From: an uncultured Chthonomonadaceae bacterium | GTDB taxonomy: Bacteria; Armatimonadota; Chthonomonadetes; Chthonomonadales; Chthonomonadaceae | Reading direction: 5' to 3' | DNA: 64,000 nucleotides | NCBI GenBank assembly: GCA_963817895.1 | Contig: CAWFQB010000003.1 | Coordinates: forward strand, 160,001-224,000 | Shown: positions 9,781-42,574 of the stretch, piece after piece | How positions within the stretch are numbered: position 1 is the first letter of the stretch | Layout of the letters: each line of letters starts with the position of its first letter | Position numbers and translations under genes: made by a program | Notes under the pieces: generated by a model | The model's input: only the letters and a program-made list of their open reading frames with translations | Told to the model about the DNA's origin: nothing | The model's database searches: none

Positions 9781-9897
9781 GGTTTTAGGGTTTTAGGGTT
9801 CTATGGTTTTAGGAAATAGGTTCCAGTTTGCGCCTTTTTCCCTAAAACCCTAAAACCCTAAAACCCTAAAACCCTAAAACCCTAAAACCCTAAAACC
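9781..9897. repeat. Inverted tandem octamer pair (GGTTTTAG)x4 ... (CCTAAAAC)x7
   Basis: Directly visible between etfA and the Fe-S oxidoreductase gene. Confidence 0.9.
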
Positions 9898-9903
9898 TGA
9901 CCT

Positions 9904-11946
9904 ATGCCAACAAGAACCATCTTTTTTCATATCTCCGGCGCGCAGCAGTCCGTGTTTTACACGCTGTCGGTTGTCGCGCTGGCGGTTTGCGTGTGGGGCG
10001 TATTGCGCCGGATTTTGTTGTGGCGGCAGGGGCAACCTGTTCCTAAAATGCAGGATTGGCCCGCCCGCCTGAAAACGCTGTTCGATCAGGCGGTTGCGCA
10101 CCGGAGGACGCGGCGGCGCAGAGTGGCGGGCTGGTTTCACGCGCTGATTTTCTTTGGCATGGGCGTATTGTTCATCGGCACGAATATCGTCAGCGTGGAA
10201 CACTATGGCGCGTTTTTCTTTGGCGAACACTGGCTGTACCGGGGCTGGTTTTATCTGCTATGCAAACTAACCATGGACGTGTTCGGATTGGGGCTGATTG
10301 TGGGAACGGCTATGGCGCTGATACGGCGGCACAGTCCCCATTCTCCCAATCTGAACCACTCGTGGAAGGACGACGCTTTTCTTCTGCTTCTGCTGGCGGC
10401 AACGATAAGCGGCTTCATGCTGGAAGGGGCGGGACTGGAAGCCGACCCGAAACGCGCTCCGTACATGGCGTTTTCTCCGGTTGGCGCACTTTTCGCCCGC
10501 TCGTACCACGCGCTACACTTCCTCACGCCCGCCAATTACATGCTGCTGTGGTGGCTTCACGCGCCGCTTGTGCTTGGCGTGATTGCCGCGCTTCCGTATG
10601 GACGCTGGCTGCATCTGTTTGTCGCGCCGCTCAGAATCGCGTTTCAGCCCGAACGTCCGATGGGCGCGCTGGAACCGGTGGCGATGGCAAAGGTCGAGGA
10701 GACGGGCCGTATCGGATTGGGCGCGATTGCCGATATGGACCGCTGGATGCTGATGAGTCTGGACGCCTGCATGGAGTGCGGGCGGTGTACGGACGTATGC
10801 CCGGCAAACGCGGTCGGCAAGGAACTCAACCCCAAACAGGTCGTGCTGGATTTGCGCCGATTGATGGGCGAAAAGTCTCCGGCGGCAACCGAAGCGGACG
10901 CGCAGGCGCAGGCAGACGGAGTTCCTATTGTCAACAGCCCGTCAACAGATGTGATTTCGGATGAGTTGCTATGGGCGTGTACCAATTGCCATGCCTGCGT
11001 GCGCGAATGTCCCGCGCTGATTCGGCATGTGGATATTCTGGACGGCATCCGGCGGTTCCGGGTGGCCGAAGGGCGTTTATCGGGAAGCGCGGCGACCATG
11101 CTGCGGCAATTGGGCAGCCGCGAAAACCCATGGGGCCTGCCCGGTTCGCAGCGTCTGGATTGGGCGAAAGACCTGAATATACAAACCGCCTCGCCAACGG
11201 ACGAGCGCGAGGTGTTGCTGTGGGTGGGGTGCGCGGGCGCGTTCGATGCGCGGGCGCAGAAAACCGTTCGCGCCCTTGCGCAACTGTTGCAGCAGGCGGG
11301 CGTCAAGTTTACGGTTCTTGGCCCGAAAGAGCGCTGCAACGGCGACCCGGCGCGGCGAACGGGCGACGAGTTTCTGTTTCAGCAACTTGCCGAAGCGAAT
11401 GTTGCCACGCTGGATGGCATTGCCGCGAAACAGGTAGTCACCTCCTGCCCGCACTGCTTCCACACACTGAAAAACGAGTACCCGCAGTTCGGCGGCAACT
11501 ACGACGTGATGCACCACACGCAGTTTTTGGAGCAGCTTGTCGAGGCCGGACGCCTGAAACTGCCCGCCACTTTCGCGAATACCGTCACGTACCACGACCC
11601 CTGTTTTCTGGCCCGCGTCAACGGCGAAACGTCCGCGCCCCGCAAACTGCTGAACGGCGCGTCCGTGATTCCGCTTGTGGAAATGGAACGGCGGGAAAGC
11701 AAAACCTTCTGCTGCGGCGCGGGCGGCGGGCGCATGTGGATGGAAGAGCCGCCCAATCAGCGTCCGGGCAAAAACCGCGCGGAAGAGATCGTGGCGACGG
11801 GCGCGAAAACGGTTGCCGTCGGCTGTCCCTTTTGCAAAGTGATGGTGGGCGACAGTCTCGCGCAGGTGGCCGGGGAAGCCGCGCCGCCGGTCATGGATGT
11901 GGCCGAAGTGATGCTTGCGGCGATACAGAATCAACCCGTTGTCTAA
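9904..11946 (+). CDS. Membrane Fe-S oxidoreductase (FadF/HdrD-like; NarI-like TM domain, two 4Fe-4S motifs, two CCG domains)
   Basis: N-terminal TM helices with His residues; CMECGRCTDVCP, CTNCHACVRECP, WVGC, CNGD, TSCPHC, YHDPC, CCGAGGG and GCPFC. Confidence 0.88.
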   Translation: MPTRTIFFHISGAQQSVFYTLSVVALAVCVWGVLRRILLWRQGQPVPKMQDWPARLKTLFDQAVAHRRTRRRRVAGWFHALIFFGMGVLFIGTNIVSVEHYGAFFFGEHWLYRGWFYLLCKLTMDVFGLGLIVGTAMALIRRHSPHSPNLNHSWKDDAFLLLLLAATISGFMLEGAGLEADPKRAPYMAFSPVGALFARSYHALHFLTPANYMLLWWLHAPLVLGVIAALPYGRWLHLFVAPLRIAFQPERPMGALEPVAMAKVEETGRIGLGAIADMDRWMLMSLDACMECGRCTDVCPANAVGKELNPKQVVLDLRRLMGEKSPAATEADAQAQADGVPIVNSPSTDVISDELLWACTNCHACVRECPALIRHVDILDGIRRFRVAEGRLSGSAATMLRQLGSRENPWGLPGSQRLDWAKDLNIQTASPTDEREVLLWVGCAGAFDARAQKTVRALAQLLQQAGVKFTVLGPKERCNGDPARRTGDEFLFQQLAEANVATLDGIAAKQVVTSCPHCFHTLKNEYPQFGGNYDVMHHTQFLEQLVEAGRLKLPATFANTVTYHDPCFLARVNGETSAPRKLLNGASVIPLVEMERRESKTFCCGAGGGRMWMEEPPNQRPGKNRAEEIVATGAKTVAVGCPFCKVMVGDSLAQVAGEAAPPVMDVAEVMLAAIQNQPVV

Positions 11947-11982
11947 ACCCTGATGTCTGTCCTTGCAGGAACACAAAGCGCT

Positions 11983-12180
11983 ATGCGAACAGAAGATAAT
12001 CCAATTGCCACTGATAAGCGCGTACTGAATGGTGAACGCATGTTCTGGATTGTGGCCGGGATACTGGGGCTGATCTTCCTGCTGTATTTTATCGGCGCGT
12101 ATCGTTTCTCGGAACCTGCCCGCCGTCAGATGAGGGAGGAACGCTCACGATATTTCGGGCGCGGACTGCAAAGTTTCTGA
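11983..12180 (+). CDS. Small single-TM hypothetical protein
   Basis: MRTEDN...FWIVAGILGLIFLLYFIGAY, 65 aa, directly after the oxidoreductase gene. Confidence 0.4.
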   Translation: MRTEDNPIATDKRVLNGERMFWIVAGILGLIFLLYFIGAYRFSEPARRQMREERSRYFGRGLQSF

Positions 12181-12198
12181 ACCGTCAAATGCCCATCT

Positions 12199-13218
12199 TT
12201 ATATCTTCTGTACCGCAAGCAGTTTGGGCGGTTTGGGCGCGATGCGGATCGGGTTGCGAAGGGGACGGCCATAACCTGCAAAGGTAACGGTCATATCGTC
12301 GCCGTCTTCCAATTTGATGCCGCTGCCGAAACTGAAGCCGCCCGTGCCAAAAAAGTGAACGTGCGCGTCACCGGGCTGTCGGTGCTGGTCGTACTTGAAG
12401 TGGTGATGTTCCAGATTTTCGAGCGTGTGTACCATGTTGTCTTCGCCGCTGACAATATTCTGTGACCAGAGCGTTTGCCCGGCGCGTTCCAGACTTGCCG
12501 TTCCGGGTACATCACCAAAATCACTGCTAAAGTTGTCGCTGATAACCAATTCCGGTCCCAGAGCGCAAGTTCGCAGTTTGGAGGGCGCGAGGTACAGATA
12601 GTTCTTCGCCTCCATTTCGTGATCGGAAAACTCGTTGCCCTGCGCGAACCCGATGCGCCGGGGCGTTCCGCTTGCATCTATAAGGTAAATCCCCGCGATC
12701 TCCGCCTCCTCGCCGCCGTCATCGGCAAAGTCCGGCACATCGAGCGGTTCGCCGTGCGCCCGCAAAATCGCCCCGCTTCCTTTGTAAAACCATTCCGGCT
12801 GCGCCCCGATTTCACCCCCTGCGGGACGCCCGCCTTCCAATCCCCATTCGTATATCCGCATACTGTCCGTGATTGGCGCGGCCTGTCCGGTTTGCGCGGC
12901 GTGCATCGCGTTGCGGTTGTCCGCGCTTTTGCGGTGTGTCAGGCCCGTGCCGCTGACCAGACAGCGGGCGGGTTCCTGCGGATGATCGAAGGCGGGCAGC
13001 AGTTTCCATTCGGATTGTCCCGCGTAAATGGCATCATAATCCAGCCTTGTCTTCGTAACGGCGCGTTCAATGATGGTAACAAGACGTTCGCCCTGATGCA
13101 GCGCGGCAAGGACGCAGGCGTACACTGAAGTATAGCCGTTGAGAAGGCGCAGTTGGCTGCCATCTACCTGCGCGACACGCCTCCCCTGCGCTTCCTGTTG
13201 TAGTTGTGCCAAACGCAT
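12199..13218 (-). CDS. AraD1/GguC-like fumarylacetoacetate-hydrolase-family protein
   Basis: VSGTGLTH, GAQPEWFYKG, DGGEEAEIAGIY, GNEFSDH, NYLYLAPSKLR and EHHHFKY. Confidence 0.8.
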   Translation of the reverse strand: MRLAQLQQEAQGRRVAQVDGSQLRLLNGYTSVYACVLAALHQGERLVTIIERAVTKTRLDYDAIYAGQSEWKLLPAFDHPQEPARCLVSGTGLTHRKSADNRNAMHAAQTGQAAPITDSMRIYEWGLEGGRPAGGEIGAQPEWFYKGSGAILRAHGEPLDVPDFADDGGEEAEIAGIYLIDASGTPRRIGFAQGNEFSDHEMEAKNYLYLAPSKLRTCALGPELVISDNFSSDFGDVPGTASLERAGQTLWSQNIVSGEDNMVHTLENLEHHHFKYDQHRQPGDAHVHFFGTGGFSFGSGIKLEDGDDMTVTFAGYGRPLRNPIRIAPKPPKLLAVQKI

Positions 13219-13329
13219 AGCGCGTATTCTCCTTTTTACATTTCACATTCAAAGCATTTTGCAGGTAAACTATTACTATCACCGACGATAATTTTACCGT
13301 TCCCGAACGCTTTTCAGGAGAACTTACGA

Positions 13330-14752: not shown

Positions 14753-15061
14753 ATGCCCATTTATGAATTCGTCTGCGCCCAATGTCAGCGCAAATTTCGC
14801 AAACTGGTCGGCGTGGTCGCCAATGAGCGCCCACTGCAATGCCCCCGCTGTCAGTCCCCGGAGGCAAAGCGTCTTATCAGCCGCTTTTCCCGCGTTCGGG
14901 GCGAAGACGCATCGTTCGACGCCCTTGCCGACGAGATGGAGGGCATGGACGAGAACGATCCCAAAGCCATGCGGCGCATGATGCGCGAAATGGGCAAGGA
15001 GATGGGCGAAGACATGGAAGAAGACTTCGAGCAGATGATGGAGGAAGAGGAGAGGGGTTAG
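14753..15061 (+). CDS. FmdB-family zinc ribbon protein
   Basis: MPIYEFVCAQC...CPRC followed by an acidic Met/Glu-rich tail (DENDPKAMRRMMR). Confidence 0.8.
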   Translation: MPIYEFVCAQCQRKFRKLVGVVANERPLQCPRCQSPEAKRLISRFSRVRGEDASFDALADEMEGMDENDPKAMRRMMREMGKEMGEDMEEDFEQMMEEEERG

Positions 15062-15180
15062 TTGTTAGGTTGTAGGTTTTAGTTGTTAGATTCAGGTAGA
15101 CGCAAGAATATCTGTTTGATAGCGCCGTCTTCACTGAAACCTTACACCGCAAGTAAACTAGACGAGCCTGTCTGCTACTC

Positions 15181-18989: not shown

Positions 18990-20006
18990 ATGAGTGACGC
19001 GAATCTGAGTTCCAATATACCCGACATAGACCATGACCGTTTGTTCAAGCTGCTGCTGACGACGTTCTTTGTGGATTTCGTCGCCCTGTTCCTGCCGGAC
19101 GTGAGCGCGAAAATGGATGCGGGCAGCGTGGAGTTCCTCGAACAGGAAGTCTTCACCGACCTTCATTCAGGCGAAAAGCACATCGTAGACATTCTGGTGA
19201 AGGTGAGACTGGCAGGCGAAGAAACGTGTCTGCTGATCCATGTGGAGAACCAAGCGTCCTCCAAAGCGGAGTTCGCGTTGCGCATGTTCACCTACTTTGC
19301 GCGTTTGCACGAGAAGTATGGCTTGCCCATCCTGCCTGTCGCCCTGCTGTCCTTCGACACGCCCCAACGCGCCGAGACGAACAAGTATGTCGTTCAGGTT
19401 CCCGGCCTGCGCGTGCTGGACTTCCGCTTTCGCGCCATTCAACTCAACCGCCTGCCCTGGCGCAGATTTATGCGGCAGGCCAACCCGGTTGCCGTCGCGT
19501 TGATGAGCAAAATGAAGATCGCGCCGAGCGACCAGAAGCGGGTGAAGTTGCAATGCCTGCGCCTGCTGCTCACCTTGCAGCTTGATCCGGCGAAATCGGA
19601 CTTGATTTTCCTGTTTATGGAAACGTACCTGAGATTAAATACAACCGATGAGCAGTGGTATCAACAGCATGTCGCGGAACTAACGACAACGGAAAAGGAG
19701 AAAACCATGGAACTAATGAGCAGTGTGGGCCGCGAAGCCTGGCGCAAAGGCATGGAAGAGGGACGGCAAGTGGGACGTTTACAAGGACAGCAGGAGGGCC
19801 GGCAGGAGGGACGGCAAGAGGGCCGGCAGGAGGGAGTGACGGCGGTAATCTCTCTTTTGTTGCAGCGCAAGTTCGGCTCGGTTCCTCCTGCGTTGCAGCA
19901 GCGTATTCAGACGCTGACGCCTGCCAATGCTGAAGCGTTGGCGGCAGAACTGCTTGGCAACATCACGCTTGCCGATGTGGAGGCCTGGCTGAACCGCGTA
20001 GCCTGA
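18990..20006 (+). CDS. Rpn-family (PD-(D/E)XK) recombination-promoting nuclease / putative transposase with DUF4351-like tail
   Basis: DHDRLFKLLLTTFF, VDILVK...LIHVENQ, RMFTYF, NPVAVALM, QEGR repeats and LQRKFG...WL C-terminus. Confidence 0.85.
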   Translation: MSDANLSSNIPDIDHDRLFKLLLTTFFVDFVALFLPDVSAKMDAGSVEFLEQEVFTDLHSGEKHIVDILVKVRLAGEETCLLIHVENQASSKAEFALRMFTYFARLHEKYGLPILPVALLSFDTPQRAETNKYVVQVPGLRVLDFRFRAIQLNRLPWRRFMRQANPVAVALMSKMKIAPSDQKRVKLQCLRLLLTLQLDPAKSDLIFLFMETYLRLNTTDEQWYQQHVAELTTTEKEKTMELMSSVGREAWRKGMEEGRQVGRLQGQQEGRQEGRQEGRQEGVTAVISLLLQRKFGSVPPALQQRIQTLTPANAEALAAELLGNITLADVEAWLNRVA

Positions 20007-20057
20007 AACCAATCCGGCCCGGGTTGATTAGTAGACCCGCATTGAACATTTAACAAG

Positions 20058-20102
20058 AAGCAGCCCTTTCGACACCGCGTATACGTCGAGAGGGCTGCTT
20101 TT
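20058..20102 (+). terminator. Putative intrinsic terminator
   Basis: aagcagccctttcgac...gtcgagagggctgctt stem followed by a T run. Confidence 0.55.
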
Positions 20103-20103
20103 G

Positions 20104-20271
20104 GTTTCTATTCCCTACGGGAACCTGTCGTCGTGGCTATAAGTTGCCGCTAAATCCGGCATATAAAATGCCGGTTGAGGGAAGAGGTCGGGTTGCAACC
20201 GATGCCCAGGTTGCCGTCCTGCAAGCGAGGCTGCGTTTCAATCCCCTACGGGGAAGAGGTCCGGTTGCAAC
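20104..20271 (-). CRISPR. Orphan degenerate CRISPR mini-array (one intact 37-bp repeat, one 35-bp spacer, one split repeat)
   Basis: 20235-20271 reads GTTGCAACCGGACCTCTTCCCCGTAGGGGATTGAAAC on the minus strand, with the typical ATTGAAAC end. Partial copies lie at 20179-20199 and 20104-20123, an AT-richer leader-like region lies at 20272-20510, and no cas genes are in the window. Confidence 0.7.
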
Positions 20272-20561
20272 TCTGTTTCGCCTGTTTCCTGCAAGTTAGC
20301 GCTTATTGTTTGGGAACAAAAGAAACAATTAAAGAAAACAGGAAGCCGCCCGCCAGAGGAAATTTCGATTTCCCTATCCATAGGCCGATGAAGTGTGGTA
20401 TACTTCATCGGCCTCTCAAAATGGCTATGCCTTTTTTGCCGTCTACGTAGTGATACATCACTGTTGCGAGACGGCCTGAACCGTTTTCATGTATCGAACA
20501 GGGTCGCGAACCACAAGAAGGAGCGCGACGCAGGCGGATTGTATGGCCTGCATATTCTTGG

Positions 20562-20686
20562 CTGGTGGTTGGTGGTTGGTGGTTGGTGACTGGTTGATTT
20601 TGTCTGTAAGCTTCGCATTTCGATACGAACCTTTATTTGTACGAGAATTAACCAGTCACCAACCACCAACCACCAACCACCAAGCA
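20562..20686. repeat. Inverted tandem heptamer pair (TGGTGGT)n / (ACCACCA)n
   Basis: Directly visible upstream of rpsN. Confidence 0.9.
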
Positions 20687-20704
20687 TCAACGAAGGAGTT
20701 TGTA

Positions 20705-21456: not shown

Positions 21457-22032
21457 ATGTCTCGAATTGGAAAACGTCCCATTCCCGTGCCGGCTGGCGT
21501 GGCGATTACGCCAACCCCGGATGGGCTGGTAACAATTAAAGGCCCGAAAGGGACGCTGACGCGACAGTTCAGCCCCGACATTACCCTGCGCCAGGAAGAC
21601 GGCACTCTGCACGTTGAGCGGCCCACAGACGGCAAAGAGCATCGCGCTTTGCACGGTCTGACCCGCACTCTCGTTGCCAACATGATCGAAGGCGTCACCA
21701 CAGGCTACACCCGCCAGTTGGAAGTGCAGGGCGTCGGTTTCCGCGCCGCAGTCAATGGAGCGATTTTGACGCTCAACGTTGGCTTCTCCCACTCCATTGA
21801 AGTGCTGCCCCGCGAGGGCATTGCGTTCGCCGTCGCCAACGACCCGCAATCCCGTAACCCGGTCATCACAATTACGGGCATTGACAAAGAGCGCGTCGGC
21901 CAGACGGCTGCCGAAATCCGCAAACTTCGCAAACCCGAACCCTACAAGGGCAAAGGCATCCGCTACAAAGGCGAAGCCGTGCGCCGCAAACAGGGCAAGG
22001 CCAGCGGCAAGGGCGGCAAGGGTAAGAAGTAG
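21457..22032 (+). CDS. rplF: 50S ribosomal protein L6
   Basis: MSRIGKRPI, HGLTRTLVANM and PEPYKGKGIRY. Confidence 0.97.
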   Translation: MSRIGKRPIPVPAGVAITPTPDGLVTIKGPKGTLTRQFSPDITLRQEDGTLHVERPTDGKEHRALHGLTRTLVANMIEGVTTGYTRQLEVQGVGFRAAVNGAILTLNVGFSHSIEVLPREGIAFAVANDPQSRNPVITITGIDKERVGQTAAEIRKLRKPEPYKGKGIRYKGEAVRRKQGKASGKGGKGKK

Positions 22033-22121
22033 ATACGAGATACAAGATAAGAGATACGAGGAAAAGCTGTATTCGATAGGCGCATTGCCCTCGTATCTCA
22101 TATCTCTTATCTTGTATCTCC
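22030..22121. repeat. Inverted tandem heptamer pair (AGATACG)n / (CGTATCT)n
   Basis: Between rplF and rplR; the same unit recurs at 30799-30906. Confidence 0.85.
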
Positions 22122-22146
22122 TGAGCCAGAGGAAAACACAACCATT

Positions 22147-22512
22147 ATGAAACCTGATGAAAAGGAAGCGCTGCGGCGCAAGCGCCACAAGCGCCTGCGT
22201 TACAAAGTGGCCGGAACCGCCGAACGGCCCCGCCTCAATGTATCGCGCAGTCTACAGCATATCTATGCGCAGTTGATTGATGATGTCACCGGAACCACGC
22301 TTGCGACTGCTTCCACCGTAGATGCCGGTTTGCGCGTGTCCCTGAAGACCGGCGGGAATGTGGAAGCCGCGAAAGCCGTCGGCGCGCTGATCGCCGAACG
22401 CGCGCTGGCAAAAGGCGTCAATGCTGTCGTGTTTGATCGCGGCGGCTACAAATATCATGGCCGCGTCCAGGCGCTCGCGGACAGCGCGCGTGAAGGCGGA
22501 CTAAAATTCTAG
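22147..22512 (+). CDS. rplR: 50S ribosomal protein L18
   Basis: [10 protein letters not shown] and [12 protein letters not shown]. Confidence 0.97.
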
Positions 22513-22642
22513 GTAGATGAGTAGATGGGTAGTCGGTAGATAGGTAGAAAAGCCTGCTACATACAATGCCTCTTGTTAAGATGAAAGATGTAGAGTAGAG
22601 AAACTCTACCCATCTACCTGACTACCTATCTACTCATCTACC
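22512..22642. repeat. Inverted tandem octamer pair (GTAGATAG-like) / (CTATCTAC-like)
   Basis: Between rplR and rpsE; the same unit recurs at 42457-42571. Confidence 0.85.
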
Positions 22643-22659
22643 TTCTAAAGGAGTTTCCA

Positions 22660-25287: not shown

Positions 25288-25438
25288 CAGGGAAAAAGGA
25301 GTAAAGAAAAAAGGAGAAAGCCTTCGCTATGATGCTGGCATCTTGGTTGGGAGAGAATATGCGTCCGTTTCAACAGGCTGGCTTTTTCCTTTTTCCTTTT
25401 TCCTTTTTTCTGCGGCGAAGCGATAGAGGCTCAGGCGC

Positions 25439-26113: not shown

Positions 26114-26878
26114 ATGACTACTATTTTGAAGTCGCCGCAACAAATAGCCAAAATGCGGGCTGCAGGGCGCGTGGTACGAAAAGTGCTGAATGAAACCGGC
26201 GCGGCGGCAGTTCCCGGCATTACAACGGGCGAACTGGAAGATATGGCCGCACGTATCATTTCAGAGCATGGCGGCACATCGCCATTTTTGGGATACGCGC
26301 CCGGAGCGCATCCGCCCTTTCCCGCCTGGACGTGCATCTCAGTCAATGAAGAGGTGGTGCATGGCGTACCGGGACGGCGCGTATTGAAAGAGGGCGATAT
26401 TGTCACGATTGACTGCGGCGTAGAACTGGATGGCTGGATGGCGGACAGCGCGTGGACGTTTGGGGTGGGTAAAATTTCGCCGCAGGCCGAACGTTTGCTG
26501 AAGGTGACGGAAGAGGCGCTGTATAAAGGGATTGAAAAAGCGCGCAAAGGCAACCGCACAGGCGATATTGGTTACGCGGTGCAGAAGTACGCGGAAACGC
26601 ACGGTTTTTCAGTCGTGCGGGAACTGACCGGACACGGGGTAGGCACGGAACTACATGAAGAGCTTCAAGTGCCAAATCACGGATCGCGTGGGCGCGGCGA
26701 CTTGTTGCGCAGCGGAATGACGTTTGCTATCGAACCGATGCTCAATGCCGGCAAGCAGGACATCAAGTACCATGACGATGGCTGGACCATCGTGACCGCG
26801 GACGGCAAATTGTCCGCGCATTTCGAACACACGGTCGCCATCGTGGATGGTGGCGTCCAAATTCTTACGAAGGAATAG
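26114..26878 (+). CDS. map: Methionine aminopeptidase type I
   Basis: CISVNEEVVHGVP, GHGVG..LHE, FAIEPM and SAHFEHT. Confidence 0.96.
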   Translation: MTTILKSPQQIAKMRAAGRVVRKVLNETGAAAVPGITTGELEDMAARIISEHGGTSPFLGYAPGAHPPFPAWTCISVNEEVVHGVPGRRVLKEGDIVTIDCGVELDGWMADSAWTFGVGKISPQAERLLKVTEEALYKGIEKARKGNRTGDIGYAVQKYAETHGFSVVRELTGHGVGTELHEELQVPNHGSRGRGDLLRSGMTFAIEPMLNAGKQDIKYHDDGWTIVTADGKLSAHFEHTVAIVDGGVQILTKE

Positions 26879-26977
26879 GTATTCGGTGTTCGGTGTTCGG
26901 TGTTCGGTGTTCGGAAATGCTCACTAATAGAAGTATCCTCCGAATACCCAATACCGAACGCCGAATACCGAATACCT
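26878..26977. repeat. Inverted tandem heptamer pair (GTGTTCG)n / (CCGAATA)n
   Basis: Between map and infA. Confidence 0.85.
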
Positions 26978-26990
26978 ACACGGAGACTGA

Positions 26991-27862: not shown

Positions 27863-27976
27863 ATGAAAGTCCGCGCGTCCGTAAAGAAAATTTGCGAGAA
27901 GTGCAAAGTCATCAAACGCGAAGGCGTTGTGCGCGTCATCTGCGTCAACCCCAAGCATAAGCAGAGGCAAGGTTAG
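27863..27976 (+). CDS. rpmJ: 50S ribosomal protein L36
   Basis: [37 protein letters not shown]. Confidence 0.97.
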
Positions 27977-28066
27977 GAAAAAGGGAAAAGGGAAAAGGGA
28001 AAAGTAGCATTGCAGTTACTTTCTTCTTTCGCCTTTCTCCTTTCTCCTCCTCACAGGGAGGGTAGT

Positions 28067-28863: not shown

Positions 28864-29094
28864 ACACTAATTTACGGTTATCAATTATCAATGTGATGTG
28901 CGGGTGGAGGAAGCGCAGGCTCTATTCAGCCTCGTGTAAACACCCAGGAGAGAACTGATAGTCGGATGAACGCGGATTCAGAGAAGAGGAAGAACGGCTT
29001 TGCCCTTCATCCCTCATCCTTCATCCTTCATCCTTTTCTCCTGCTGTCACTTGGTGGCAACTGTCAACAGACCACAAGGAGCATCTGGTTCGTT

Positions 29095-29766
29095 ATGGCT
29101 AATAATCATGATCCCCGGTGTCGCCAGTGTCGTCGCGAGGGATTAAAACTGTACCTCAAAGGCGACAAGTGCTTCACCCACTGTACGCTCGATAAGCAAA
29201 GCAGGGACGGCAAAACCAAATGGCGCGATAAGCCGCCGGGAATGCACGGCGCCCCTGCCTTTTCACGGAAAATCACGGAATACGGGCAGCAGTTGCGCGA
29301 AAAGCAGAAATTACGCCGCGTGTACCGCGTTCTGGAAAAACAATTTCACAACTATCTTGACGAAGCCCTGCGCCTGCCGGGAGTTACGGGTGAGAACCTG
29401 TTGCGCCTGCTGGAATCGCGCTTCGACAATGTGGTATATCGTCTGGGTTTTGCGGCCAGCCGGGCGCAGGGCCGCCAGATGATCTCGCACCGTCTTTTCA
29501 CTATTAACGGTCAGCGCGTCAACATTCCTTCGTATATTTTGAAGCCGGGTGATGTTGTAGGCGTTCACGAAAGCGCAACGAAGAGCGGCGGTATCCGCGA
29601 AGCCCGCGACCGCGTGATGAAGCGCAGCCTTCCCATCTGGCTTCAGTTCAATACGAATGCGATGGAGGGCCGCGTCGTGGCAATTCCTACGCTCAACGAG
29701 ATGAAAGAAGCCGGCGACATCGCCCACATTCGCGAACAGCTTATCATTGAGTTCTATTCGCGGTAG
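29095..29766 (+). CDS. rpsD: 30S ribosomal protein S4
   Basis: CRQCRREG..LYLKGDKC, EYGQQLREKQK, LESRFDNVVYRLG and IIEFYSR. Confidence 0.96.
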   Translation: MANNHDPRCRQCRREGLKLYLKGDKCFTHCTLDKQSRDGKTKWRDKPPGMHGAPAFSRKITEYGQQLREKQKLRRVYRVLEKQFHNYLDEALRLPGVTGENLLRLLESRFDNVVYRLGFAASRAQGRQMISHRLFTINGQRVNIPSYILKPGDVVGVHESATKSGGIREARDRVMKRSLPIWLQFNTNAMEGRVVAIPTLNEMKEAGDIAHIREQLIIEFYSR

Positions 29767-29780: not shown

Positions 29781-30796
29781 ATGGACCTGACCCTGCCGAA
29801 CATCCAGAAACTCGACTCCGATGCGAACTACGGCAAGTTCATTGTGGAGCCGCTGGAGCGCGGGTACGGGGTGACGCTGGGAAACTCCCTGCGCCGCGTG
29901 CTGCTGTCCTCGATACCGGGGGCGGCGATTACCTACGTCAAAATTGATAAAGTGCTGCACGAGTTCTCCACCATTCCCGGCGTGAAAGAAGATACGACGG
30001 AACTGTTGTTGAACCTCAAAGATGTGTTTGTCAAAGTGCATCAGAACGGAACCGGCGAACGGCACGAACCTGTGACCATCACCATTGACCGCAAGGGCGA
30101 AGGCGTTGTTACGGGCGCGGATGTGCATTGCCCCTCCGAAGTGGAAGTCGTCAACCCGGAAGCGTACATCGCGACCATCTCGGACGAGGATGCTCACCTG
30201 TTCGTGGAAATGACGATTGAAACCAACAAGGGCTATGTCCTCCCGGATCGTCAGGAGCGGCGCAGTCAAATGGGCATCGGCGTGATTCCGATGGGAGCCG
30301 CGTTTACGCCCGTGCGCAAGGTGAACTACACGGTGGAAGCCACGCGACAGGGATCGAACACGAACCTGGAGCGGCTGATACTGGAAGTGTGGACGAACGG
30401 CACGATTACGCCCGAAACGGCGATCAGCGAGGCCGCCAAAATCCTGAGCCAGTATTTCGGATATGTTCGCCAATTTCCGTGGCGGCACAGCAAGCCTGAT
30501 GCCGACGGGAACCAAGGCGCTGGAGGAGGGTGGCCCCGAACCGCCGTATCTGCGCATCGAGGAACTGGACTTCTCGGTTCGCACCTACAATTGCCTGAAA
30601 AAAGCCAACATTCTGACCATCAACGAACTCGTGCAGTTCACCGAAACCGACCTGATGCAGATTCGCAACTTCGGAAAGAAAATCGCTGACGGAAGTGCGC
30701 GAAAAACTTGGACAACTCGGCCTGTCGCTCAAAGGCGGCACAACCGTCAATCTGGATGACGACGACGAAGCCGATAACGATACAGATGAGGGGTAG
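29781..30796 (+). CDS. rpoA: RNA polymerase alpha subunit (two apparent frameshifts, near 30465 and 30680)
   Basis: [22 protein letters not shown] and [12 protein letters not shown]; the [20 protein letters not shown]...IRNFGKK is in a second frame and an acidic tail ending at TAG 30796 follows a further shift. Confidence 0.93.
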
Positions 30797-30924: not shown

Positions 30925-31489
30925 ATGCGTCACCGCAAAGCCTATCGAAAGCTTGGATTGCCAAGCGACCAGCGGCGCGCGCTGCTGAAAAGTTTGACGC
31001 GCAGCGCTGCTGCTCAATGACCGCATCGTCACAACGGAAACGCGCGCCAAAGAAGTGCGTCCTATTGTGGAGAAACTTGTCACCATTGCCCGCAAGGGCG
31101 GCACGGAAGCCCCTGTTGCTATGCGCCTGCACACGCGCCGTCTGGTGCGCCGTTGGGTGGACAGCAACATTGACGAGTTTGTCCGCGACCCCTCCAACAA
31201 AGGTCCGCGCGGGGGCGCGAAAATCGCGCGCAACCCGTATTACGTTGTGCCGCGCCTGTTTGAAGAGATCGCGCCGCGCTACATGGATCGTCCGGGCGGC
31301 TACACGCGAATCACCAAAATCGGTTTCCGACGCGGCGATGCCGCTCCGCTTGTGCTGCTGGAGTTTGTGGAAGGCAATGAAGTTCCCATTCCCGAACCCG
31401 ACGCCACGCCCGGTCAGCGCCACTGTCACAAGCGAAGGCCGCAGAGGGCTGTTCGGATTGGGACGACGGAGAGGTTAGGTGATAGTTGA
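30925..31489 (+). CDS. rplQ: 50S ribosomal protein L17 (frameshift near 31005; 3' end uncertain)
   Basis: MRHRKAYRKLG...QRRALLKSL, then RIVTTETRAKEVR...RPGGYTRITKIGFRRGDAAP in another frame. Confidence 0.9.
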
Positions 31490-31577
31490 TAGTTGATAGT
31501 ATAATGCCACCCTCCTCTGCCAAATACGCTGAGAAGAAAACAAAGCGCCTATCAACTATCAACTATTAACTATCAAC
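31478..31577. repeat. Inverted tandem heptamer pair (TGATAGT)n / (ACTATCA)n
   Basis: Between rplQ and truA. Confidence 0.85.
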
Positions 31578-31578: not shown

Positions 31579-32355
31579 ATGCCACACTTCAAAGCCACTG
31601 TAGAATACGACGGCACGAACTTTTCGGGGTTTCAGTGGCAGCACAACATCCGAACGGTGCAGGGGACGCTGGAAGCCGCGCTGTACGAGCGGACGCGGCA
31701 GACGGTACGGATTACGGGCGCGGGACGGACGGATGCGGGCGTTCATGCGTTGGGACAGGTCATCAGTTTCGAGTGTGAAACGACCATTCCGTTTCCGCGC
31801 ATGGCGATTGCCCTGAACAGCGCGTTGCCTTCGGATGTCACCATCCGGCAGGTAGAGATTGTAGATAGCAGTTTTAATGCGCGGTTTTCCGCGTCCTCGC
31901 GACTGTATGCGTATCTGATCCTGAACCGGGGTACGCCGTCCGCAATTTGGAGCCGTTACAGCGCGTTGCGTCCCGGTCCGCTGGATGTGACTGCGATGCA
32001 GGCGGCAGCGCAATGGATGCTGGGCGAACAGGATTTCGCGTGTTTTACAAACGAGTTGGTGGAGGGGCAAACCACGATGCGCGACATCATGCGTTTGCAA
32101 ATCCGACGCCATCATTCGTTTGTGCTGGCGCGTATCGAGGCCAACGCCTTTCTGCGCGGCATGGTGCGCAACATCATGGGAACGCTGATTGAAGTGGGCG
32201 CAGGCAAGAGGCAGGCGGACGACATTCCCCGACTGATTGCCACGCGCGAACGCAAACAGGCCGGCCCCACCGCGCCCGCGCAGGGTTTATGCCTGCTCAA
32301 AGCGCGTTACGGGATCCGAAGAGACTACAAGAGCGAGATAAGGTTTAAGGGGTAA
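31579..32355 (+). CDS. truA: tRNA pseudouridine(38-40) synthase
   Basis: YDGTNFSGFQ, GAGRTDAGVHA, NAFLRGMVR and TAPAQGL. Confidence 0.95.
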   Translation: MPHFKATVEYDGTNFSGFQWQHNIRTVQGTLEAALYERTRQTVRITGAGRTDAGVHALGQVISFECETTIPFPRMAIALNSALPSDVTIRQVEIVDSSFNARFSASSRLYAYLILNRGTPSAIWSRYSALRPGPLDVTAMQAAAQWMLGEQDFACFTNELVEGQTTMRDIMRLQIRRHHSFVLARIEANAFLRGMVRNIMGTLIEVGAGKRQADDIPRLIATRERKQAGPTAPAQGLCLLKARYGIRRDYKSEIRFKG

Positions 32356-32363
32356 GGGATAAG

Positions 32364-32442
32364 TAGATACAAGATACGAGATACGAGATACGAGCCAATT
32401 CCTGAACACCTGAACACCTGAATACCTGAACACCTGAACACC
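32364..32442. repeat. Hybrid tandem repeat (AGATACG)n + (CCTGAACA)n
   Basis: Between truA and rplM; the same composite occurs reversed at 4099-4160. Confidence 0.8.
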
Positions 32443-33333: not shown

Positions 33334-33340
33334 GGAATTT

Positions 33341-33519
33341 AGACAGGATTAACAGGATTTTCAGGATTAACAGGATAACGAAGAGGGAACAGACTCGTCC
33401 AATAAGCGAGTTGTCAAGAGTTGCAATAGCTGGGTGTGCTATTTACATGCCGCCAGATGTTGCCTCTACCCATTGATGAAAAATCTTGTTAATCCTGAAA
33501 ATCCTGTTAATCCTGTCTA
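33341..33519. repeat. Inverted tandem nonamer pair (CAGGATTAA)n / (TTAATCCTG)n
   Basis: Downstream of rpsI. Confidence 0.85.
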
Positions 33520-34784: not shown

Positions 34785-35310
34785 GCCTGCGCACTTATCT
34801 CTGCAAATCTGATATCTGTCCCGCGATACAAACAAATTACCGGTCTGCATCGCTAATACAAGGAGGAATTATTTTTTGTGCGTGGAACAATCATTGTGTT
34901 AGAATGACACTTGCCGCATATTTGTAGAATTTTTCACGAAGAACTCTGCTGTTGCGGCAAATTCTTACTTATGCTTCTGCGCCATACGCTATAAAGCGCA
35001 AGGTGCAACAGTAATAGACAGGAGGGATATTGAGATGAAGCCGGATCGTTTTATGAAGGTTCTTATCGCGCTGCTCGCCATTGGGGTTTGGGGGCTGCTT
35101 CTGTCACCGTCCCGGGGAATAAATTCCTCGGCTGTGGTAACAAAGTCCGCCTGCGCGGACTACACCGTAAGATGGCGAGTTACACCGCATTGAGTCCGCG
35201 CAGGCGGACTTTGTTACCACAGCCGCGAGATTCATCTCACGGCGTTTCGTGGACTGGTATTGCGTCTATAAGAACTACATTGGGTTTGATCGGAAATGAG
35301 GCTGTAACAC

Positions 35311-35529
35311 ATGAGCGATACTTTAACTCCTCCCCACACAACATACAAAGCAGTCGTCCATACCGAAGAGGAGGGCGGTTACTGGGCGGAAGTGCCTGAA
35401 TTGCCCGGATGCTTCACGCAGGGCGATACGCTGGATGAACTGTACGACAACTTGCTTGAGGCAATTGCGTGTCATCTGGATGCCGCAAAAGACCGGGTTC
35501 GTGTAGGATTTTTGGAGATGGCGGCTTGA
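35311..35529 (+). CDS. hicB: HicB-family antitoxin (short)
   Basis: EEEGGYWAEVPELPGCFTQGDTLDEL..NLLEAI. Confidence 0.85.
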   Translation: MSDTLTPPHTTYKAVVHTEEEGGYWAEVPELPGCFTQGDTLDELYDNLLEAIACHLDAAKDRVRVGFLEMAA

Positions 35530-35729
35530 AAGCAGTTACGGGAACGCGCTTTTGCAAAGCGTTGCATCGCAACGGATGGACCTATCTGCGAACAAGTGGC
35601 AGCCATGAAACGTGGCATAAGGCAGGTTATGGCAATGTTACTGTGCCGGTTCACGCGGGCAAAGATATCAAGCCCGGTTTGCTGGCGAAACTGCTCAGAC
35701 AAACCGGCCTGACGCAGGCGGATTTGTGA
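35526..35729 (+). CDS. hicA: HicA-family toxin
   Basis: TTG overlapping the hicB stop; GW...RTSGSH...VTVPVH.GKDIKPGLL..LLRQTGL. Confidence 0.85.
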   Translation: MKAVTGTRFCKALHRNGWTYLRTSGSHETWHKAGYGNVTVPVHAGKDIKPGLLAKLLRQTGLTQADL

Positions 35730-38208: not shown

Positions 38209-38604
38209 ATGACGATGTATCAAGCTCCCCAACAAAAAGAGGATCGCTCTTTGGGCGAACTGCTGGGGCAATTGTCGCAGGACACGTTGACCCTTGTGCG
38301 GCAGGAATTGACGCTCGCCAAAACCGAGATGAGCCAGAAGCTGGCGAACGTCACCAAAAACATTGGCCTGTTGGTGGCGGGCGGCGCGTTGGCGTATGCG
38401 GGCGTCCTGATGCTCGTCGCCTCCCTTGCTCTGTTGCTGTATGAAGTATTTCATTTGCCCGGATGGGTGTCCGCTCTGCTTGTGGGCGCAATCGTGACGG
38501 GTATCGGCGGCGCGATGGTCATGAAGGGCATTAGCGCCATGCGCAGCGCCGACCTGACGCCGCATCAAACGCTGGATTCGCTGAAGGAGTTGAAACATGG
38601 CTGA
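38209..38604 (+). CDS. Phage-holin-family (YqjE/DUF1469-like) membrane protein
   Basis: DRSLGELLGQLSQD..TLVRQELTLAKTE, two TM helices and PHQTLDSLKE. Confidence 0.8.
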   Translation: MTMYQAPQQKEDRSLGELLGQLSQDTLTLVRQELTLAKTEMSQKLANVTKNIGLLVAGGALAYAGVLMLVASLALLLYEVFHLPGWVSALLVGAIVTGIGGAMVMKGISAMRSADLTPHQTLDSLKELKHG

Positions 38605-40285
38605 TCTTCCCACTGGAATAGACCAGGCCTCTACTGATCGGGCGGAAATCAATGCGATAGGGGAGCATCATGGCGGCGAGGACGAAACCGTCGAGATCGT
38701 TGCTATCCGCTCTGACATTGAGCATACCCGGCACGATATTGAGGAGACGCTGGAAGCGATTAAGGAAAAACTGAACCCGCAGGTGGTGCTGGAACAGGCG
38801 AAAGAACATGCCCGCGATGTGGCTGTAGATGCGCTTGACGCGGCGCGCGACAACGTAAAGGAGAGCATCAGCGCCACTGTGGAGAATGTGAAAGACACGG
38901 TTGGCGATGCGATGCACAATGCGGCGGATAGTGTTAGCAACGCGGTTCAGAACGTTTCCGATACGGTCAGCAATGCGGTGCAATCCGCCAAAGACAAAGT
39001 GGGCGATATGTTCGGGGGCAAGGACAAGGGCGAACACACGGTGGATACAGCCATTGATGCCATGCGGGGCGCTTCACCTCCCAAACCTGCCGTTACCGTC
39101 AACAAGAGAATAGGAGGCGTTATGTCAGGAATGAGTGGCGCAGGCACAAACGCGCTGGATACGGTCAAGCGCAATCCCGTGCCGACCGCGCTGATTGCCG
39201 TTGGCGCGACATATCTGTATCTGAAACACCGCGACGATAACAAGGTTCCGAGCTACACAACGCGAGATTACGACTACACGGACTACGAGCCGGTATTTCC
39301 CACCTCGCAGCCGATTGACAGCCTGACGGGCGATGAAGAGATAATCATCATCGAAACCGTATCGGATGTGGACGGACGGGGAAGCCTAACGAGCGGCAGT
39401 GGCAGTTCCGGCGCGTCTGTCGGCTCCTCGCTGCTCAACACCGTCAGCCAGAATCCGCTTCCGATTGCCGCCGCCGTGTTGGGCGCGACATGGCTGATAA
39501 TGCGCAGCCGCGATAATGGGGGAGACGCTTCCTATCGCCGCGACAATTACGCGGATTACCTCCCGCCAGATACGTCCGGGCCGAATATCGGCAGCAGGAT
39601 CGGCGACGCGGTGGACGCTGTAAAGGGCAAAGCCGGAGATGTTAGTGATACGGTCAGCGGCGCGGTTGGCAGCGCGAAAGATAAAGTATCCGATGCCGTC
39701 AGCGGCGCGAAGGATAAGGTCACGGATGTAGTGGGCAGCGCGAAAGACAAAGTGACAGACGCCGTTGGAACCGCTAAAGACAAAGTGACCGATGTGGTCG
39801 GGAGTACAAAAGATAAAGTTGGCGATGTCGTGGACAGCGCCAAAGATAAGGTGAGCAGCGCAATGGATACAGCCAAAGACAAAGCGGGTCAGGCGAGCAG
39901 CGCGGTCAGCAGCGCGATGAGCGCGGCGAAAGACAAAGCGACGCAGGTGACGGGGCAGGCGCGGGACAAAGCCAGCCAGCTGGGATCGTCCGCGATGGAG
40001 CAAACACGGAAAGCGCAGGGCGCGGTTTCGGACACGTTTCATGACAACCCGATGGCCTACGGATTGGTGGCATTGGGCATCGGCGCGGCAGTGGGCCTGC
40101 TGATTCCGGCAACCGAGCCTGAAAACCGCTTCATGGGCCAGAAGCGCGACGAGTTGTTCAACCGGGCGCAGACTGCCGCTTCCGATATCGCGACGAAAGT
40201 GCAGACGGTTGCCGAAAACACCCTTGATGTGGCGAAAACCACCGCCGCGTATGAAGCCAAACATGCGGGTCTGACAACCGAGTAA
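38597..40285 (+). CDS. DUF3618-domain protein with LEA-like 11-mer repeats
   Basis: IRSDIEHTRHDIEETLEAIKEKLNP; three NP-hydrophobic segments; tandem xxAKDKVxDxV repeats; LIPATEPENRFMG. Confidence 0.8.
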   Translation: MADLPTGIDQASTDRAEINAIGEHHGGEDETVEIVAIRSDIEHTRHDIEETLEAIKEKLNPQVVLEQAKEHARDVAVDALDAARDNVKESISATVENVKDTVGDAMHNAADSVSNAVQNVSDTVSNAVQSAKDKVGDMFGGKDKGEHTVDTAIDAMRGASPPKPAVTVNKRIGGVMSGMSGAGTNALDTVKRNPVPTALIAVGATYLYLKHRDDNKVPSYTTRDYDYTDYEPVFPTSQPIDSLTGDEEIIIIETVSDVDGRGSLTSGSGSSGASVGSSLLNTVSQNPLPIAAAVLGATWLIMRSRDNGGDASYRRDNYADYLPPDTSGPNIGSRIGDAVDAVKGKAGDVSDTVSGAVGSAKDKVSDAVSGAKDKVTDVVGSAKDKVTDAVGTAKDKVTDVVGSTKDKVGDVVDSAKDKVSSAMDTAKDKAGQASSAVSSAMSAAKDKATQVTGQARDKASQLGSSAMEQTRKAQGAVSDTFHDNPMAYGLVALGIGAAVGLLIPATEPENRFMGQKRDELFNRAQTAASDIATKVQTVAENTLDVAKTTAAYEAKHAGLTTE

Positions 40286-40369
40286 CCCTCAATGTATGGC
40301 GTCCACTGATACAAATACCCCTTCTTCCAATATCTGGGCAAGGGGTATTTTGTTTTTATACAGTCGGCT

Positions 40370-40594
40370 TTATGCTGCTAAAACCGGGTAGTCAACTTCT
40401 CGCGCCGCGTACTCCAAAGCCGCTTGCAAATCTTCCTTCTCCAAATCCGGCATTTCTTCTAAAATTTGTTCGGCGCTCAAGTTTGATGCAAACAAGTTTA
40501 GAACATCTACAACACGGATTCTCATTCCCCGGATACAGGGGCGGCCTCCACATTGTTTTGGATTTATAGTAATTCGGTTGCGCCATGTCTGCAT
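40370..40594 (-). CDS. DUF433-family protein (putative antitoxin)
   Basis: RITINPKQCGGRPCIRGMRIRV...ILEEMPDLEKEDLQAALEYA. Confidence 0.85.
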   Translation of the reverse strand: MQTWRNRITINPKQCGGRPCIRGMRIRVVDVLNLFASNLSAEQILEEMPDLEKEDLQAALEYAAREVDYPVLAA

Positions 40595-40673
40595 CTGGCT
40601 GACTCCTGCTTCCAAGTGTGAAACGTTTTTGATATTTAGCGTACCCAAAATTTCGTAAATCACGCTTACAAGA

Positions 40674-42451
40674 TTAGCGCGGAACGATGACGCTGGCGGT
40701 AATGCTTTTGCCGTCAGGTTCATTTTCAAGGGTGAAGGTTCCGTACAGGTCGCCGCGCACGAGGGTTTCCACAATGGATAAGCCCAGGCTGTCACTGCTT
40801 TTGGGCGTGAAATTGGGGGGCAGGGGTTCGCCGTCGTTGGTGACGAAAACGCGCAGTTCGGTCGGGGTTTCGCCGAGAAAGATGTGGATGCGCCCGTCGT
40901 TGAGCGTTTTGAAGCCGTGTTCAACGGCGTTTTGCACCAGTTCATTGAGGACAAGCGCCATACTTGTGGCTTTGGCGAGCGGCAGAATAAAGTCGTCGCC
41001 CTCCACTGTGGTATAAATGGTTTTACCGGGCGGCACGACGGATTGCTGCGTGGCGTGAACGATGCTTTCCGCCACTTTTTTGATGCTCACCGTATCCAGA
41101 TCGTCGCGGGTCAGCAGTTCATGGACGCTGGAAATCGCCAGAATACGGTTCAGGGTGTCATTCAGCGCGTCTTCTACGGTGGTGTATTTGGAGTAGCGCA
41201 TTTCCAATCGCACCAGGCTGACGATCTGCTGCAAATTGTTCTTCACGCGGTGGTGCATCTCCGGAAATCACGGCGGATTTCACCATCAGCTTGGCGTGGT
41301 CCACGGCAAGCGCGGCCTGCGTCGCGAGCGCCTGCAAAATGGCAAGCTCTTCCATCGTGAACGTATGAATTTTTTCCGTGTAGCAGTTGAGCGCGCCAAT
41401 GGCCTGGCCCTTCATCATCAGGGGAATACTGGCAAGCGAATGGACGCCCGCCCGCTGCGCGATGTCGGGGAAATTGTAGTCCGGGGCTTTCTGCACGTCG
41501 GGCAGGGTAATAATGCGCTTTTCCGCCACCGCGCTACCCGCAACGCTTTCGCCCACTTTGAGATTGGGCTTTTTCGCGTATTCGTTGCTGGCGGCCTGCG
41601 TCGCCTTGATAATCAGTTCTTTCGATGTTTTCATCCACCAGCATCACGGTACAGATTTTGTACTGCATCGTGCGGGCGATCATCTGCACGAAAAGCGACA
41701 GCAGTTCCTCCAGATACATGTTGGAGGTAATCGCCTGACTGACTTCCGAAAGCGAATGAAGCTGCGTGGCGTGGCGTTCCAATTGCCGGAATCGGCGCGA
41801 TTTTTCGATTGCGCCCGCCACCTGATTGGCGATTCCCGACAGCAGCCGAACCTGATTTTGCGTGTATTCGCGGGGACGGCGCGTTCGCACATTGATAACG
41901 CCCAGAATCTCGCCCCGCGTGACAAGCGGAACCGACAGCATGGACTCGTATTCGCCCTCGTGCATTTCGGGGAAAGATTTGAAGCGGTGATCTTTATACG
42001 CTTTCTGGCTGACCAGAACCGGCTTGCGCTCGCGGGCCACCCAGCCCGTAATGCCTTCGCCCATCTTCAGGCGTATTTTGCCGACCATGTGCGCGAAGCT
42101 GGCATCCGCCGCCCGCAGCACCAGTTCATGCCGCGCTTTGTCAATCAGATACACCTGACAGGAATCGGTTTCCGTGATGCGAATGGCGATGTCGGCGGTG
42201 ACTTTGAGCATCTCCTCGGTATCGAAGGCCGATCCGGTCGCTTCCCCGACGCGCCGCAGTGCTTCGGATTCGCCGCGCTTTTCTTCCAGCTCGGCGCGTA
42301 ACTGCTGCTCGGTCAGCGTCAATTCGCGTATCAGGCGGTCACGGGCATCAAGTTCCTGTTGCAGCCGCGCCGCGTCCGGGTTGTCGCTGCGGCGCATTTC
42401 GGCAATCATTCGGCGGGCGCGCCAGGGGGCGCGAAGAGGGGGAGGTTTCAT
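40674..42451 (-). CDS. Cytoplasmic GAF-GAF sensor histidine kinase of the EutW/PdtaS type (frameshifted)
   Basis: Two GAF domains (GEGITGWVA; GESVAGSAV), H-box EMHHRVKNNLQ, LVLNELVQNAVEHG and SLGLSIV. Confidence 0.85.
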
Positions 42452-42574
42452 GGTGAGTAGATAGGTAGATAGGTAGATAGGTAGATAAGTAGATAGATAG
42501 GTAGATTACTCTGCTTGCCGGTCATTCATTGCATGAGGAATCCTACCTATCTACTTATCTACCTATCTACTTCC

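Follow-up and report, generated by a model that had tools for sequence, protein, structure and literature searches.

The 64,000-nucleotide (nt) window analysed here (G000:C3:160001-224000, where G000 is the source assembly, 7.48 Mb in 14 contigs, with 57% GC and 81% complete) holds the rpsN to rpsI ribosomal-protein operon between 20.7 and 33.3 kb and, in the gaps of that operon and elsewhere, a series of elements in which a G-rich array of short tandem repeats is followed by a spacer and then by a C-rich array of the same repeat in inverted orientation. These elements belong to a genome-wide family of one architecture and one polarity, which shares its repeat units with cassettes that carry a gene for a four-helix-bundle protein (PF05635) or a GxxExxY nuclease (PF13366); the period of the repeat follows the protein family, and the contents of conserved sites are replaced between relatives.

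Since the genes of G000 were called with a purpose-built codon model of their own, distances to start codons are approximate, and since the assembly contains insertion and deletion (indel) errors, which affect rplQ and rpoA, exact repeat copy numbers and gene calls are approximate as well; the frame breaks in rpoA/rplQ at window positions 30640-30700 and 31000-31020 are most likely sequencing errors of the assembly. SecY assigns the genome to the family Chthonomonadaceae of the Armatimonadota. Comparisons were made with L001, a relative whose SecY is 94% identical, and with G002, a genome of the same genus (median protein identity 84%), of whose 8 Mb 1.2 Mb were set against G000. The elements are as follows, with positions in the window unless a contig is named.

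4099-4158: chimeric element, G arm GGTGTTC followed by a non-matching C arm GTATCTC
6333-6360: solo C-rich arm of the 10-nt CATTCGCG family, a family that brackets the GxxExxY gene G000:C8:26422
9781-9897: inverted element, unit GGTTTTAG, 26-nt spacer, in the gap between etfA and an Fe-S oxidoreductase gene; GGTTTTAG also brackets the four-helix-bundle gene G000:C2:440314
15057-15089: solo G-rich arm, GGTTGTTA family
20559-20691: inverted element, unit TGGTGGT, 5' of rpsN; an AGTAGTC element stands there in L001
21315-21444: inverted element, unit GGTAGAC, rpsH-rplF gap; the L001 counterpart is an AGTAGTC element
22028-22122: inverted element, unit AGATACG, rplF-rplR gap, beginning within the rplF stop codon; the L001 counterpart is a TAGGCAT element
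22510-22643: inverted element, unit GTAGATAG/GTAGATGG, rplR-rpsE gap; the L001 counterpart is an AGTAGTC element, and in G000 the unit family also brackets the four-helix-bundle gene G000:C1:1459284
25290-25409: inverted element, unit GGAAAAA/GGGAAAA, secY-adk gap; in a relative the unit is identical and the spacer partly homologous
26876-26978: inverted element, unit GTGTTCG, map-infA gap; the L001 counterpart is an AGGCATC element
27975-28049: inverted element, unit GGGAAAA, rpmJ-rpsM gap; the L001 counterpart is an AGGCATC element
29004-29035: solo C-rich arm, unit CCTTCAT, within the conserved rpsD leader; a TCATTCA arm lies here in L001
30795-30908: inverted element, unit AGATACG, rpoA-rplQ gap; in L001 the spacer is homologous and the unit a variant, AGATAAG
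31476-31577: inverted element, unit TGATAGT, rplQ-truA gap; in a relative the unit is identical and the spacer unrelated
32337-32442: chimeric element, truA-rplM gap; G arms GATAAGG and AGATACG, then a non-matching C arm CCTGAACA
33340-33519: inverted element, 9-nt unit CAGGATTAA, 106-nt spacer, 3' of rpsI; the unit and its variant pattern also bracket the GxxExxY gene G000:C1:43927
42456-42571: inverted element, unit GTAGATAG, between two minus-strand genes for an ANTAR response regulator and a GAF protein
G000:C4:153478-153552, 874972-875046 and 878977-879036, and C14:269488-269547: repeat-armed hairpins in rRNA genes

All cassettes listed in the original prediction, which had been made from the letters of the window, were recovered at the positions given there; its list was correct and lacked the mismatched pairs at 4099-4158 and 32337-32442 as well as the solo arms at 6333-6360 and 15057-15089. 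The arms of the element at 33341, 97% complementary over 37 nt, do mirror each other's variant units as it had described, a pattern that is not specific to the locus and is instead a trait of the family, seen also around a filled cassette.

Across G000 we found 2821 merged arrays with units of 6-11 nt, and 525 inverted pairs in G-first order; on contig C4 there are 229 strong arrays where shuffled sequence gives 2. The pairing of arms described for the window extends to the whole genome, with inverted matches in 495 of 975 adjacent array pairs and in 48 after partners had been shuffled, and so does the claim that the G-rich arm always comes first, which holds as a genome-wide rule (488 G-first, 17 C-first and 2 direct pairs at spacers of up to 150 nt). 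A typical element has 31-nt arms (median) and a 48-nt spacer, and its period is usually 7 or 8 nt (278 and 165 of 500 elements, the others having periods of 6 in 21, 9 in 21 and 10 in 15). The repeat units are not private to single loci but form genome-wide families: there are 83 distinct units, and families reach 59 copies. Many arms lack a partner or do not match it. Adjacent strong arrays comprise 387 matched and 211 unmatched G-then-C pairs, 118 pairs stacked on one side and 13 C-then-G pairs; non-matching neighbours still keep the G-then-C order (211 vs 11), and nested elements are common.

The 497 pairs with spacers of up to 200 nt are distributed over 381 co-directional, 61 convergent and 30 divergent gaps (472 intergenic pairs), with a further 25 inside called genes, while counted by gap, elements occupy 369 of 4794 co-directional, 60 of 815 convergent and 29 of 815 divergent gaps. 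Where the flanking genes are co-directional, the start of the G arm falls between -30 and +10 nt of the stop codon in 287 of 381 cases, and the C arm ends 3-30 nt 5' of the start codon in 208 of 381. Stop codons at a G arm are TAG in 223 of 386 instances, compared with 26% for all genes. Enrichment inside the ribosomal operon, as originally proposed, was found with the strict caller at 7 of 21 gaps, against 362 of 4773 other co-directional gaps (7.6%; p = 7e-4). Hairpin elements are also present in the rRNA genes of G000, in each of the two 16S and two 23S copies found. We saw no erosion of upstream gene ends at occupied gaps, where the conservation of the last five codons was 0.61 compared with 0.57 elsewhere.

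The spacers, described as unique, are not so in 98 of 318 simple cases, which have homologues elsewhere in G000 at a median identity of 67%. Homologous spacer pairs share their unit in 81 of 178 cases (5% expected) and have different arms in the other 97; they lie at unrelated loci in both orientations, the same orientation being found in 75 of 112 co-directional pairs. There was little sign that spacers had been captured from genes, since just 15 of 462 simple-spacer hits fell in called genes, several of them via nested arms. An element's own arms match each other slightly better than they match the arms of other copies (0.84 vs 0.80; 252 of 405), which fits either copying or selection for pairing, and we detected no element-specific extension of the stem into the spacer (4.10 vs 4.04).

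Filled versions of the elements exist for two gene families. G000 holds two PF05635 and four PF13366 genes, and all six are enclosed by G-first inverted arms; three of these six filled cassettes have units found in the window (GGTTTTAG, GTAGATAG/GTAGATGG and CAGGATTAA). Both PF05635 cassettes lie outside rRNA genes, and the window elements contain no PF05635 open reading frame (ORF). For an order-wide survey we took 38 bundle and 41 nuclease loci and dropped four bundle loci with no tblastn hit and one bundle and two nuclease loci with short flanks; inverted flanks were present at 29 of the 33 remaining bundle genes and at 35 of the 39 remaining nuclease genes. The detected periods differ between the families, being 7 (53) or 8 (9) and no others for bundle genes, and 9 (21), 8 (6), 10 (2) or 6 (1) for nuclease genes. 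The original prediction, which had proposed footprints of a mobile single-gene cassette and had named four-helix-bundle and GxxExxY proteins as possible cargo, is thereby supported on both counts, since filled forms were found, share their units with empty elements and alternate with empty alleles at orthologous sites. Its third candidate, DUF559, is not: at two of three matches the flanks carry a different repeat, which is not periodic, and no repeat was seen at the third. The DUF559 genes G000:C1:437988 and C5:310841, with a non-periodic repeat family of their own, make up a separate small-gene-plus-repeat system.

A gene's unit tends to recur among the gene-less elements of the genome that carries it. 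Across five repeat-rich genomes, the unit of a bundle gene occurs in the operon stretch of its own genome in 10 of 15 cases and in that of another genome in 8 of 60, and a single labelling out of 120 permutations, the true one, reaches 10. Among 37 genomes, the density of operon elements rises with gene count (rho 0.55, kin not being independent), all six genomes with operon elements have a gene, and 14 genomes have neither.

The bundle protein matches PDB 2GSC (E = 1e-22), the solved structure of a pentameric ring with no known function (PMC4990558), reported to resemble Avd (PMC10053308). Among bundle proteins from different loci, sequence identity is no guide to the unit (rho 0.10, Mantel p = 0.14), and proteins 70-73% identical bear unrelated units; for the nucleases a link between identity and unit is weak but present (rho 0.21, p = 0.001). 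Residues D78, E88 and K90 of the nuclease are invariant in 39 of 39 sequences, and a model built from the alignment predicts a PD-(D/E)XK fold with a predicted local distance difference test (pLDDT) score of 92.9, compared with 41.7 for a single-sequence fold. A fold search with this model returned SSO0001 (4IC1), which we take to be a Cas4 protein, at Z 8.8, two restriction-like folds at 8.3 and 8.0, and the Hjc resolvase at 7.7, all within about 1 of each other, so that the search points to no single function. PF05635 genes have been described inside cas loci (PMC3936711), and a reverse transcriptase has been reported with a GxxExxY gene next to it (10.1101/2021.01.26.428298).

What the original prediction did not foresee is that sites are retained while their contents are replaced. 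In the operon gaps of L001 the elements have other units, for the most part AGTAGTC and TAGGCAT, and in more distant relatives these gaps are often 10-14 nt long. Among 373 orthologous gaps compared between G000 and G002, an element is present in 79 in G000, in 102 in G002 and in 65 in both, where 21.6 would be expected in both by chance. At the same position, however, the unit is kept in just 10 of 62 element pairs (2.1 by shuffling). Spacers scored in the top 5% for two of five same-unit pairs and seven of 38 different-unit pairs, and were unrelated in 31 of the 38, which means that in most changes the element was exchanged as a whole, and that in some the spacer stayed while its arms were rewritten; a smaller test was cleaner (homologous spacers in three of four same-unit and none of 14 different-unit pairs), and we prefer the larger. 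The commonest unit in G002, AGTAGTC (12 of 65), is also found on both sides of a bundle gene of that genome. Three G002 elements with this unit (L122, L255:8627 and L283:7091), one of them filled, follow near-identical gene ends, and two of the three have an identical tail up to the start codon, which suggests that the whole stop-to-start gap was transferred between paralogous junctions.

Eleven comparisons of filled-cassette sites gave a similar picture: in the other genomes the corresponding site holds an empty element of another unit, a nested element, a solo arm next to a remnant of the end of the gene, the gene itself between altered arms, or no element at all. Other cargo occurs as well, in the form of an arm beside a toxin-antitoxin pair and of a 212-aa ORF beside or between arms. 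The toxin-antitoxin pair, presumably PemK/MazF-like, lies at L231 (G002:C24:82671-83578), at the site of a G000 bundle cassette and beside one arm of another unit. Contigs from public data add that a closer relative has about 100 extra bases at adk-map, and that an RNA-library contig of a relative spans rplQ-truA-rplM with non-matching gap contents (such contigs show neither strand nor processing).

We consider it probable, from these comparisons, that the hairpins are gene-less copies of small selfish cassettes, likely moving as DNA hairpins that overwrite earlier copies and tolerated because they would fold out of the transcript. The full form would be a four-helix-bundle or GxxExxY nuclease gene between inverted tandem-repeat arms like those of the hairpins, and the element would be copied as a DNA hairpin with the help of the cassette proteins, which may recognise fold and repeat period and not letters; the predicted nuclease would cut, and the ring-forming bundle protein would bind or anneal. 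The copy would then replace the stretch from a stop codon to the next ribosome-binding site, preferring sites with an older element, and such overwriting would leave nested, chimeric or solo arms. Persistence in essential operons and in rRNA would be possible because the paired arms loop the insert out, bringing the stop codon back beside the next start. With the G-rich arm in front, the C-rich arm would be paired during its own transcription, and the cargo gene would gain a purine-rich leader. The more specific proposal, that of a transposase-free mobile DNA in which either a ring-forming bundle (7-8-nt period) or a minimal PD-(D/E)XK nuclease (about 9 nt) reads array period and fold and overwrites older copies, we put forward tentatively.

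Several observations weigh against the selfish-cassette reading. The rank correlation among genomes ignores kinship, 17 of the 37 genomes have a gene and no operon element (Fisher p = 0.065, not significant), and the genome L002 carries elements with 7-nt units, yet has no PF05635 match. There are just six such genes for 83 units in G000, itself 81% complete, and we know of no catalytic role for PF05635. No target duplication or fixed junction motif was found at element ends (the longest word common to both flanks averaged 3.06 for an element's own flanks and 3.06 for those of other copies, n = 393), some arms change around a spacer that is kept, as in the seven of 38 different-unit pairs above, and neither excision nor fresh insertion was seen within one population.

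One alternative is host recombination, in which the arms are substrates for gene conversion or for uptake of DNA from relatives, and the bundle and nuclease genes are passengers, like integron cassettes without a recombinase of their own. That there are few genes per genome for many units, and other cargo (the toxin-antitoxin pair, the 212-aa ORF) at the same sites, speaks for this account, as do the near-identical gene ends before the three AGTAGTC elements of G002, which conversion between paralogous junctions would give; the letters of a new unit are shared with the old one slightly above chance (3.56 vs 3.32, p = 0.04), and genes flanking occupied gaps are slightly more conserved (83% vs 80% identity). 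Recombination requires homology, yet the unit changed in 52 of 62 replacements, and neither the dependence of period on protein family (7-8 vs mostly 9) nor the match between a gene's unit and the empty elements of its own genome is explained. We think this account unlikely.

Alternatively, the host might keep the elements as RNA hairpins (RNase III sites, stabilisers or translational couplers) in strongly expressed operons, with local slippage and arm-to-arm copying giving rise to them. The RNA folds of 11 inverted window elements are very stable (z = -3.6 to -14.0, with none of 200 shuffles equally stable for each element), and RNase III and Rho are both encoded in G000; the chimeric element at 32337-32442 does not fold (z = +0.5). 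Enrichment in the ribosomal operon and at the 3' ends of genes, conservation of sites between species, the better match of an element's own arms, and the more frequent GGAG site of the gene after an element (111 of 240 vs 934 of 5193) all fit such a role, as do the Coxiella rRNA inserts with heptamer repeats that are described as cut by RNase III (PMC4990558). Against it, mismatches between arms on the mRNA strand are of the G·U type in 168 cases and of the mirror A·C type in 210 (p = 0.035 against G·U), leaving no RNA wobble signature. The 211 adjacent G-then-C pairs that do not match, and the lack of a detected element in the operon stretch of 31 of 37 relatives, are likewise hard to reconcile with it, and units and spacers shared between unrelated loci need copying between loci, not local slippage. 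The RNA role that the original prediction had offered as its second option thus found no positive support, and we judge it rather improbable; we read the data as movement at the DNA level and tolerance at the RNA level.

It is very doubtful that the elements are REPINs (doublets of repetitive extragenic palindromes, REPs) moved by a Y1 transposase of G000 resembling a REP-associated tyrosine transposase (RAYT). The plan is the same, an inverted doublet with a variable spacer in hundreds of extragenic copies (PMC3337134), and G000 has three PF01797 matches, but none of these three Y1 genes has periodic arms in its inspected flanks, and the arms of our elements are tandem arrays without an internal palindrome; the Y1-gene flanks largely refute the idea. 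One of these genes, C2:68237, has a different palindrome, which matches window 35112-35242, where two inverted repeats of REP type form a non-periodic pair of 50 nt with 24 loci in G000, and this is likely an ordinary REPIN-RAYT system beside the HicAB pair at 35311-35729. That the repeats are assembly artefacts is hardly credible: the indel errors in rplQ and rpoA, and public runs that came from relatives only (at most 0.13 of words matched, none from the strain of G000 itself), leave room for the idea, but elements stand at the same sites in relatives that were assembled independently, in some cases with a homologous spacer, and an independent contig spans the secY-adk element with 69 other letters in 970.

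Parts of this picture have been published before, namely inverted heptamer pairs and rRNA inserts with a bundle protein. The GGGAATC repeats of Xanthomonas and the GGGGA(C/T)T repeats of Nostoc are G-rich heptamer arrays that were read as G-quadruplex formers and that, like the elements described here, are mostly intergenic and near the upstream stop, with 70 and 75 inverted pairs in two Xanthomonas genomes (PMC4692102). In that account, however, there is one unit per genome studied, 83% conserved between two species, whereas G000 has 83 units side by side, many of them lacking runs of G, and at orthologous sites one unit is exchanged for another; the main text of that paper does not contain the word 'helix' and makes no tie to bundle genes. 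The unexplained TAACTGA arrays of Beggiatoaceae similarly lie in intergenic regions just 5' of start codons, ribosomal-protein genes included, but are described as direct repeats of one unit, with a single inverted case and a proposed role in translation control (PMC4679880); the same source notes that, in many prokaryotes, long simple repeats are most often heptamer arrays, with no accepted origin.

The ORF-bearing intervening sequences of 23S rRNA consist of a stem-loop with a PF05635-type S23p ORF and, in Coxiella, heptamer repeats before the start codon, and are described there only in rRNA, as RNase III substrates (PMC4990558). The rRNA genes of G000 have comparable stem-loops, which are gene-less; unlike the S23p inserts, our elements occupy hundreds of gene gaps, are mostly ORF-less and in the window intergenic, and a second gene family (GxxExxY) uses another period. 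Like REPIN-RAYT systems, they comprise inverted doublets that are non-autonomous, vary in spacer and number in the hundreds, alongside a rare cognate gene with the repeat on its flanks (PMC3337134), but their arms are tandem 6-10-nt arrays and not imperfect palindromic REPs, many unrelated units coexist in one genome, sites are reused, and the cognate genes are not HUH/Y1 transposases. Similarly, Ssn with its NTS/SRM repeats is a small nuclease of a single domain whose gene has hairpin repeats on its flanks, with further copies genome-wide, and its authors liken the system to IS200/REP domestication; Ssn is, however, a GIY-YIG enzyme specific for the sequence of 20-50-nt hairpins (PMC11893778), whereas the nuclease here is PD-(D/E)XK, the bundle protein has no known nuclease site, and bundle similarity does not predict the unit. 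Although they would work in a similar way, the elements lack defining features of both REPIN-RAYT and NTS-Ssn. Miniature inverted-repeat transposable elements of the DDE type differ in that no target-site duplication was found at our elements. The arms of our elements are common to gene-bearing cassettes, whose genes (PF05635, PF13366) are not known transposases. A diversity-generating retroelement with an Avd relative would leave an adenine excess, but changes among homologous spacers have no adenine bias (A/G 710, C/T 693), and the single RVT_1 match lies on C6, the bundle genes on C1 and C2. Our search, which covered few subscription journals and no supplements, found no publication tying bundle or GxxExxY genes to genome-wide inverted arrays, or reporting unit swapping.

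The surroundings of the elements hold further features. The operon begins at rpsN, with no rplE reading frame seen directly upstream (window 20010-20558), where a leader motif is common to G000 and L001; the spc operon appears split in this genus. A gene for a DUF4351/Rpn-like protein lies at 18990-20006, between fusA and the ribosomal operon. The rpsD leader (28890-29095) is conserved across Chthonomonadales and is a candidate S4 autoregulatory RNA; it has no Rfam match, and nor has any other part of the window, and in both G000 and L001 a repeat arm lies in its variable part. A metagenome scan with TruA as query returned only distant relatives, at 39-52% identity.

Taken on their sequence comparisons, for which the evidence is strong, the elements are best filed as a real genome-wide family within the small-gene-plus-hairpin kind of selfish DNA. 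The analysis ties the PF05635 and GxxExxY families to the repeats: the period follows the protein family while the letters are free, and sites are reused as their contents turn over. The reading is open to direct biochemical test with two proteins of 120-150 residues and short oligonucleotides. If the more specific, tentative proposal is true, such a system would be the source of the heptamer excess in bacterial genomes and of the ORF-bearing intervening sequences in rRNA, and would represent a new kind of DNA mobility that needs no transposase and reaches essential operons harmlessly.

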